12,350 nucleotides of DNA from a virus (Duplodnaviria; Heunggongvirae; Uroviricota; Caudoviricetes), in the IMG/VR virus record IMGVR_UViG_2534681699_000012. One strand, given 5' to 3'. The notes under the pieces were generated by a model, which was given only the letters and a program-made list of their open reading frames with translations, ran no database searches and was not told where the DNA came from. Position 1 is the first letter of the stretch, and each line of letters opens with the position of its first letter. Shown piece after piece: positions 9,337 to 10,005 of this stretch. The translations under genes were made by a program, and so were the position numbers.

Positions 9337-10005
9337 CTATTTTTTCCCTGAAGCGGAAAACATTACTACAGTACCTTGAACCTTGGTTTTAACATTCTCG
9401 AAATGCTCTGAGAGTATATGTGTTAAGCCTTCTTCGGAATCTTTTGTGTTTGAAAAGATGCCTTTCTGATTGTAAATGCGCATCAGTTTTTGACCGAAGC
9501 TATTGTGCACAACTCCATCGCCAAGAATTGTGGCTCCGTATAGAGTTCCATCGTCAGTTAAGGCCTGCGCCGCATTGCGTATTACACAGCTTTTTGTAGA
9601 TATATTTCCAGGCAGGCAGTGAAGAAGGTAAAACATGGAAATGGAATCAAATTGACCATGTAACGCCGCGGGATAAGGTTCAAAAACATCATGGCTAATT
9701 TTATGTTTAATTTTTGATTCCCCAGCCCTTGTAGATGCCGCGTTCAGGCTAGCTTCGTTCAAATCCATTAAAGATATCAGACTACTCTCAGGTACGTGAG
9801 TAAGGTAAAACCCAGTTCCAACACCAATATCCAGATGGTTGTTACCTAAATGTTCCAGAAAGTGTGGAAGAAGGTGTTCCTTTGTAGGACATCCCCATGC
9901 AAGCCGATTTGATACTCCCAAAACCCACCAGTCATAAAGCTTTAGGGTAAGTGGTGTGTAAATTTTAGCCCCATCATCTGTGTTTTTTTTCATTAATTTC
10001 ACCAT
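9337..10005 (-). CDS. ybcY: Class I SAM-dependent methyltransferase (Rossmann fold), substrate unknown; prophage cargo gene
   Basis: 222-aa minus-strand ORF with glycine-rich SAM-binding motif I (LDIGVGTGF). No DPPY/NPPY-type DNA amino-methyltransferase motif seen. Noticeably lower GC than the tail genes. Symbol assigned from memory of the DLP12 context (tfa - methyltransferase - tfaX - appY - ompT), not from a search. Confidence 0.75.
   Translation of the reverse strand: MVKLMKKNTDDGAKIYTPLTLKLYDWWVLGVSNRLAWGCPTKEHLLPHFLEHLGNNHLDIGVGTGFYLTHVPESSLISLMDLNEASLNAASTRAGESKIKHKISHDVFEPYPAALHGQFDSISMFYLLHCLPGNISTKSCVIRNAAQALTDDGTLYGATILGDGVVHNSFGQKLMRIYNQKGIFSNTKDSEEGLTHILSEHFENVKTKVQGTVVMFSASGKK

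Follow-up and report, generated by a model that had tools for sequence, protein, structure and literature searches.

The 12,350-nt window analyzed here (IMG/VR virus record IMGVR_UViG_2534681699_000012) is the right arm of a lambda-like prophage. The gene under study, located at positions 9337..10005 on the minus strand, is the intact allele of the Escherichia coli prophage gene ybcY (RefSeq accession no. WP_000239881.1). Its product has the fold and the conserved residues of a class I S-adenosylmethionine (SAM)-dependent methyltransferase. The evidence presented below makes it reasonably probable that this protein is a functional stand-alone enzyme, carried by lambda-like prophages as moron cargo, which would act on a small molecule or lipid to the benefit of the lysogen. 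The gene is real, conserved, very common and already annotated; as an object it is not novel.

An intact ybcY allele encoding a class I methyltransferase

As annotated in the list of open reading frames (ORFs), the gene encodes a protein of 222 amino acids (aa), and its 222 codons are interrupted by neither a stop nor a frameshift. Its orientation is opposite to that of J, lom, stf (side tail fibre) and tfa, all of which are located on the plus strand. The flanking DNA contains tfa on one side and a tfa remnant followed by appY on the other. An earlier note on this DNA had described an intact orphan frame of 222 aa, transcribed against the tail operon and with no adjacent restriction endonuclease or other partner gene; the uninterrupted ORF, the strand of the tail genes and the identity of the flanking genes bore out all of these statements.

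Comparative sequence analysis revealed that region 9200-10400 of the window shares 99.8% identity with the corresponding DNA of E. coli XH988, in which the genes are arranged in the same way. The XH988 copy is situated at the DLP12 locus and is followed by envY, ybcH and nfrA. The coding sequences (CDSs) of the two copies show 0 differences, and the XH988 product is WP_000239881.1, annotated as a “class I SAM-dependent methyltransferase”. The protein was also matched by phrog_2132 of the PHROG database (E-value 8e-157, residues 5-222).

In the Pfam search, four methyltransferase models (Methyltransf_12, _23, _25 and _11) all scored above their gathering cut-offs. The family signature was derived from a set of 86 sequences from many phyla, at 32-65% identity. 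Motif I (DIGVGTGF) begins at residue 59, with DIGVGTG occupying residues 59-65, and its glycines G61, G63 and G65 are retained in 84-85 of the 86 family members. D81, which is invariant (86/86), matches the acidic residue at the end of strand beta-2, and this position suggests that it is the ribose-binding acid of class I enzymes. The structure predicted by AlphaFold2 using 32 homologues (mean predicted local distance difference test score of 90.6) consists of two N-terminal helices, a core of alternating strands and helices, and a final pair of adjacent strands. The features that characterize a class I SAM methyltransferase, i.e. motif I, the beta-2 acid, an above-threshold profile match and the seven-stranded fold, were all found. 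The earlier note had read motif I as the mark of a Rossmann-fold methyltransferase and had proposed a hidden Markov model (HMM) search and structure prediction as checks. The former gave the four Pfam matches and the latter a confident class I fold with small-molecule or lipid methyltransferases as its neighbours, in full agreement with that assignment.

Only five columns are invariant across the 86 sequences: Y24, D81, H129, G157 and D189. Near-invariant positions are D25, W37, C39, H57, S121, C130, P132, G133, N179, F184 and N186. Residues H129 and C130 are located directly after strand beta-4; in many O-methyltransferases the catalytic base lies just past this strand.

If the target were a macromolecule (RNA such as tRNA or rRNA, a protein of the host or phage, or DNA methylated in a non-canonical way), its methylation might alter translation or protect the phage; we give this possibility some weight, but consider it unlikely. 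A regular-expression scan of the protein detected no [DNS]PP[YFW] and no PC motif, i.e. no motif IV of DNA methyltransferases, just as the earlier note had remarked for motifs of the DPPY/NPPY type. According to the model, the protein comprises the catalytic core plus the two N-terminal helices, with no RNA- or DNA-binding or target-recognition domain, and its isoelectric point is about 7. The best profile and fold matches act on small molecules or lipids, and one relative fused to a cytochrome P450, together with the fungal relatives, also fits small-molecule chemistry (see below).

Selection and distribution

Comparison of alleles ranging from 99% to 65% identity yielded ratios of non-synonymous to synonymous substitution rates (dN/dS, Nei-Gojobori method) of 0.07-0.25, indicative of purifying selection. 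The set extended from the alleles of E. coli 536 and F9792 (2 non-synonymous versus 6-7 synonymous differences) out to those of Citrobacter, Salmonella and Enterobacter. The 222-codon frame is intact in 59 of the 62 IMG/VR prophage copies that could be located by an exact anchor.

These values argue against the view that the gene is a neutral passenger, travelling with ompT or with the prophage end and decaying without any role. This view draws on the inactivation of the gene in K-12, on a truncated variant (P0028, whose C-terminal residues are unrelated to the gene) that stands for 445 database sequences, on the A8 tract after the start codon, which is a mutational weak point, and on the HNS mark given to the promoter region in a published table (see below). 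It seems quite improbable, given the low dN/dS across such wide divergence and the high proportion of intact prophage copies. In addition, away from the SAM site, invariance across the 86 sequences is confined to a handful of residues (Y24, H129 and D189), pointing to a conserved active site.

Of 5426 complete E. coli genomes, no fewer than 3369 contain 80% or more of region 9200-10400. A protein at least 99% identical is encoded in 15 deposited phage records, including those of ev243, 2G7b and PhiR26_1. In ev243 and PhiR26_1, J, lom, stf and tfa are directed rightward, the methyltransferase gene leftward and the tfa remnant rightward. Beyond the remnant, both phages encode an alpha/beta hydrolase and an OmpT-like omptin, whose genes are directed leftward and are followed in ev243 by the integrase gene. 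The genes for the omptin and the 494-aa alpha/beta hydrolase (ev243, 5831-8455; PhiR26_1, 474-3098) adjoin the methyltransferase gene near the integrase end, and the place held by the hydrolase is occupied in the window by appY. The presence of a phage omptin beside the methyltransferase supports a phage origin of the chromosomal ompT neighbourhood.

In E. coli 536, the prophage next to the tRNA-Arg gene has been reduced to an integrase fragment and a tfa fragment; the methyltransferase gene and ompT are intact. The gene was also found at the ends of prophages located elsewhere, for example next to potB in F9792 and in an O157:H7 prophage that contains an IS66 insertion and carries catalase as cargo. 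In IMG/VR, 166 contigs were found to contain a relative, and in most of the 80 that were kept the gene lies approximately 0.3-1.4 kb from the contig end. A homologue with 56% identity is also prophage cargo in Providencia alcalifaciens, but at a different classical moron site, between the genes for the Q antiterminator and the holin. In Stx phages this interval is the site of the Shiga-toxin genes. The Providencia homologue adjoins a gene encoding an NleF caspase-inhibitor domain (5471-7669).

The contexts described above also bear on the idea that the gene serves the phage itself, either in the modification or assembly of tail fibres or in anti-defence during infection. Its position next to tfa, the 157-nt tfa repeat that brackets it, and its presence in deposited phage genomes with named hosts all point in this direction. 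Nevertheless, such a role is very improbable: the gene is convergent to the tail operon and has its own promoter region, its close homologues stand singly in the chromosome, away from any phage genes, and the Providencia prophage homologue is located elsewhere, near the lysis genes. Moreover, the gene is intact in E. coli 536 although the tail genes have gone, and an intact copy is missing from K-12 DLP12 and from many phages.

A stand-alone family without a conserved partner

In Salmonella, Enterobacter, Citrobacter, Yersinia, Aeromonas and Edaphobacter, homologues of 40-70% identity stand alone amid unrelated surroundings. When a single genome was scanned for each species, a relative was identified in at least 600 bacterial species. 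The 80 relatives kept include proteins from Pseudomonas, Dyella, Vibrio, Nostoc, Pseudarthrobacter, Oceanobacillus, Acidobacteria and others, and a protein of the fungus Aspergillus wentii is 44% identical.

Inspection of the genes next to homologues in nine genera gave no clue to function, and clustering of the flanking ORFs of 76 species-representative loci revealed no neighbour common beyond close relatives. The only recurrent neighbours in these loci were an antisense shadow ORF of the gene itself and a dehydrogenase, the latter found in 10 loci (representative from Pseudomonas). “Orphan” status is a property of the whole methyltransferase family. Two fusions were detected, one with a cytochrome P450 and one with RCC1 (the RCC1 fusion derived from a fungal metagenome-assembled genome). 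Since the fusion proteins that were checked come from single contigs, they may be artefacts of gene modelling.

A search of PADLOC-DB gave no defence match besides mad2 (E-value 0.0033, 14.3 bits), which reflects a generic methyltransferase domain. A role in restriction-modification or defence was rejected, as there are no corresponding motifs and no partner gene, and the marginal PADLOC match stands alone. The statement of the earlier note that this is not obviously a restriction-modification system is consistent with the lack of motif IV and of an endonuclease gene, and with the generic nature of the mad2 match.

Start codon and the frameshifted K-12 copy

The true start codon is probably Met5 (ATG, 9993..9991) rather than Met1, which would give a protein of 218 aa. 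This prediction is based on the alignment of 32 homologues, which starts at Met5 (an invariant residue), on the coverage of the PHROG match (residues 5-222) and on the spacing of the Shine-Dalgarno sequence. A Shine-Dalgarno-like GGTGA (9999..10003, minus strand) is located 5 nt upstream of the Met5 ATG, and the purine-rich block is retained in Citrobacter freundii as GGATGA.

The Met5 ATG is directly followed by an A8 homopolymer (9983..9990, minus strand; T8 on the plus strand), which is present in 39 IMG/VR copies and is the site of a 2-bp loss in K-12. The ybcY gene of the K-12 strain J53 is annotated as “frameshifted”. Its alignment with the window CDS revealed 5 differing positions, made up of the 2-bp loss (CDS positions 15-16) and three substitutions. 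Within the ATG plus A8 tract, the window sequence AATGAAAAAAAAC is replaced in K-12 by AATAAAAAAAC, and this loss destroys the Met5 codon and shifts the frame. Both the annotation and the alignment thus uphold the statement of the earlier note that the equivalent gene in K-12 DLP12 is a pseudogene. Mutations in the A8 tract may be recurrent, making it an on/off hotspot.

Putative promoter region, hairpin and borders of the cassette

Two promoter-like sequences, both on the minus strand, were identified by a consensus scan in the 56-nt spacer between the methyltransferase gene and the tfa remnant: P1 (10034..10061; TTAACC, 16 nt, TGcCATAAT with an extended -10) and P2 (10006..10034; TTGATT, 17 nt, TATAAC). 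Since such sites are no commoner than in shuffled sequence, the consensus scan by itself is weak evidence. However, genomic SELEX (systematic evolution of ligands by exponential enrichment) with the RpoD holoenzyme gave a peak in the ybcY/tfaX spacer of K-12, for which a ybcY promoter with the exact hexamers of P2 was proposed and which was marked HNS (Shimada et al., PMC3946193). The sequence of P2 is identical in the window and in K-12. All alleles share a conserved block of approximately 75 nt upstream of the gene, including those of E. coli 536 and C. freundii, in both of which the DNA beyond this block is unrelated. By analogy with K-12, the RNA polymerase peak in the ybcY/tfaX spacer (PMC3946193) makes expression of the gene in the lysogen plausible.

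The surroundings of appY (10200-11800) are very AT-rich, with a GC content of 0.25-0.33, far below that of the rest of the window. This fits with the HNS mark on the K-12 ybcY/tfaX spacer in the SELEX table.

RNAfold analysis predicted a GC-rich hairpin (CCGCAGCACG...CGTGCTGCGG) at 9296..9330, located 7 nt past the stop codon of the methyltransferase gene and 14 nt after that of tfa. Its calculated energy is -23.9 kcal/mol on the methyltransferase strand and -31.7 kcal/mol on the plus strand, where it is followed by a T-run. This structure is probably a terminator common to the two convergent genes. In O157 the hairpin stays with the gene, followed by a T-rich tail, although the DNA beyond it is different; in 536 and F9792 the stem is retained and the loop varies. 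In the window itself, no T-run follows the hairpin on the methyltransferase strand.

On the opposite strand, a 45-aa RefSeq ORF (approximately 9255-9392, plus strand), annotated as “hypothetical protein” in XH988 and as “nucleocapsid protein” in J53, runs across the hairpin and overlaps the methyltransferase gene at its 3′ end. This ORF is probably a spurious call.

The edges of the promoter-gene-hairpin cassette match breaks of homology in 536, O157 and C. freundii. The GC content across the gene is 0.40-0.44 (about 41%), compared to 0.46-0.52 in stf and tfa (about 50% for the tail genes). The cassette is bracketed by a 157-nt direct repeat (family D1, 83% identity), with the left copy (9106..9262, plus strand) in the 3′ part of tfa and the right copy (10155..10311, plus strand) within the tfa remnant, at a spacing of 1049 nt. 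It is likely that the repeat is a footprint of tail-fibre module recombination, as well as a substrate for deletion of the cassette.

The tfa remnant itself (tfaX-like ORF, 10062..10247, plus strand) was recognized by a match to Pfam Caudo_TAP and has an in-frame stop at its end; RefSeq labels it as a tail fiber assembly pseudogene. The stop is a TGA at the position of a Trp codon of Tfa (LLEA-stop versus LLEAW). In phage ev243, a 101-aa tail fiber assembly protein is annotated at the position of the remnant.

Nearest enzymes and proposed mechanism

The closest folds and profiles, with identities of 12-21%, were those of O-, N- and C-methyltransferases that act on small molecules or lipids. 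The top ranks of the Foldseek search were held by phosphatidylethanolamine N-methyltransferase, juvenile hormone acid methyltransferase (JHAMT), phosphoethanolamine methyltransferases and SgvM; the viral fold library yielded only generic methyltransferases. Profile searches of PDB sequences gave JHAMT and UbiG with the profile of close homologues, and NodS, CysG/BelI and XrdM/ToxA with the diverse 86-member profile. Also listed among the nearest proteins were BelI (3-sec-butylmalate carboxyl O-methyltransferase), DhpI (phosphonate O-methyltransferase), Coq5 (quinol C-methyltransferase), PsmD, RebM and the uncharacterised MM_2633. A small-molecule substrate, one of the two possibilities named in the earlier note, fits with these fold and profile neighbours.

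No NCBIfam family matched the window protein at an E-value of 0.001 or below. The scores obtained were 17.4 for CpaM (cut-off 180), 16.9 for RquA (175) and 15.6 for PmtA (390). The commonest NCBIfam matches of distant family members were BioC, UbiE/MenG, CpaM and NodS, all well short of membership. Assignment to the named families UbiE, UbiG, RquA, PmtA, CpaM and BioC was rejected, the scores being far under the curated cut-offs. A literature search with the gene name, the RefSeq accession number and related terms found no functional data on the ybcY product.

On the basis of these observations, we propose that the gene would form its own transcription unit, composed of one or more sigma-70-type promoters, a short leader with a Shine-Dalgarno sequence, the gene, and the hairpin shared with convergent tfa. 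In such a small unit, expression of the gene from the prophage would be uncoupled from the late tail operon, with the promoter region probably damped by H-NS. In the enzyme, SAM would be held by motif I (D59-G65), the ribose-binding D81 and D106, and the N-terminal helices, with their Y24-D25 and W37-x-C39 signatures, may close over cofactor and substrate. H129 (beside C130, after beta-4) and D189 are candidates for the general base and/or metal ligands. The acceptor of the methyl group would be an O, N, S or C atom, not in DNA but in a small metabolite or xenobiotic that is probably hydrophobic or acidic. By detoxifying or modifying a small molecule or lipid, the enzyme would benefit the lysogen and not virion production.

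A more far-reaching version of this proposal, which we regard as distinctly unlikely, is that the ybcY family constitutes an unrecognised class of stand-alone methyltransferases with a catalytic metal or metalloid site (H129-C130...D189, perhaps with C39) akin to the His-His-Asp site of CysG/BelI, by means of which lysogens would methylate, and thereby detoxify or volatilise, a carboxylic acid, a thiol-reactive toxin or a metalloid in the gut. If this were true, a metal-site detoxifying methyltransferase would explain the retention of the gene together with ompT after loss of the remainder of the prophage.

About two thirds of the complete E. coli genomes contain the gene, which travels on lambda-like phages beside ompT. 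Most E. coli genes were studied in K-12, a strain that has only a dead copy. A substrate, if found, would define a lysogenic-conversion trait for a very common prophage family and would provide an annotation for a stand-alone family that extends to fungi as well as to at least 600 bacterial species. As matters stand, the annotation is correct yet ordinary.

Other features of the window

The tail genes, all on the plus strand, encode a C40/NlpC-P60 tail protein (K), tail assembly protein I, the tip protein J (1132 aa), Lom, the side tail fibre (1117 aa) and Tfa. The side tail fibre gene (5345-8698, plus strand) contains an Ala/Ser/Thr-rich low-complexity stretch, at approximately residues 110-470, which gives rise to shadow ORFs of 100-311 aa in alternative frames and on the complementary strand.

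A match to the Rfam family IS009 (RF02111; 223.6 bits) was found at 9041-9239 (plus strand), wholly within the coding 3′ part of tfa. IS009 is a candidate small RNA that originates from intergenic screens in E. coli. Because the match lies entirely inside tfa coding DNA, this “RNA family” may represent conserved tfa, unannotated in K-12.

On the other side of the methyltransferase gene, appY (10868..11617, plus strand) is located 3′ of the tfa remnant. It is followed, in the end region of the window, by ompT (minus strand), of which only the 3′ part is present.

Comparison with known systems

The closest counterpart is YbcY of K-12, encoded in DLP12 by the same gene at the same locus (tfa - ybcY - tfaX - appY - ompT). 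The K-12 frame was lost through the 2-bp loss, whereas the window copy is intact. No function is assigned to K-12 YbcY, WP_000239881.1 or phrog_2132.

Among characterized enzymes, the UbiE/MenG/Coq5, UbiG and RquA families differ clearly from the window protein, which scored 16.9 against a cut-off of 175 for RquA and gave no match to UbiE or UbiG at an E-value of 0.001 or below. JHAMT is the top PDB sequence match with the close-homologue profile (E-value 3e-5), and BioC is the NCBIfam model matched by most family members (37 of the 86; best E-value 1e-10). Both resemblances concern only the SAM-binding core, at about 21% identity, and the window protein itself does not reach an E-value of 0.001 for BioC.

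In the biosynthesis of cystargolide and belactosin, carboxyl O-methylation is catalysed by the metal-dependent enzymes CysG and BelI (PDB 9FCD and 9FCE), in which two histidines and Asp191 bind the catalytic divalent metal (PMC11408123). In the HMM alignment, H129-C130 of the window protein stands opposite the two histidines of CysG, the second of which is replaced by cysteine. The invariant D189 is located approximately 60 residues downstream of H129. An analogous His-Cys-Asp site (H129-C130...D189) may be hypothesized from this comparison. However, identity to CysG/BelI is just 16-18%, and these enzymes are encoded in biosynthetic gene clusters, whereas the window gene has no conserved neighbour.

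In its genetic organization, the methyltransferase gene resembles lambdoid morons such as lom and bor: with its putative promoters and its hairpin it would make up an autonomous unit, situated at one end of the prophage, lower in GC content and directed against the late operon. The products of lom and bor are envelope proteins, whereas the window product is a cytoplasmic enzyme. The omptin and alpha/beta-hydrolase morons of ev243 and PhiR26_1 occupy the same end region as the methyltransferase gene.
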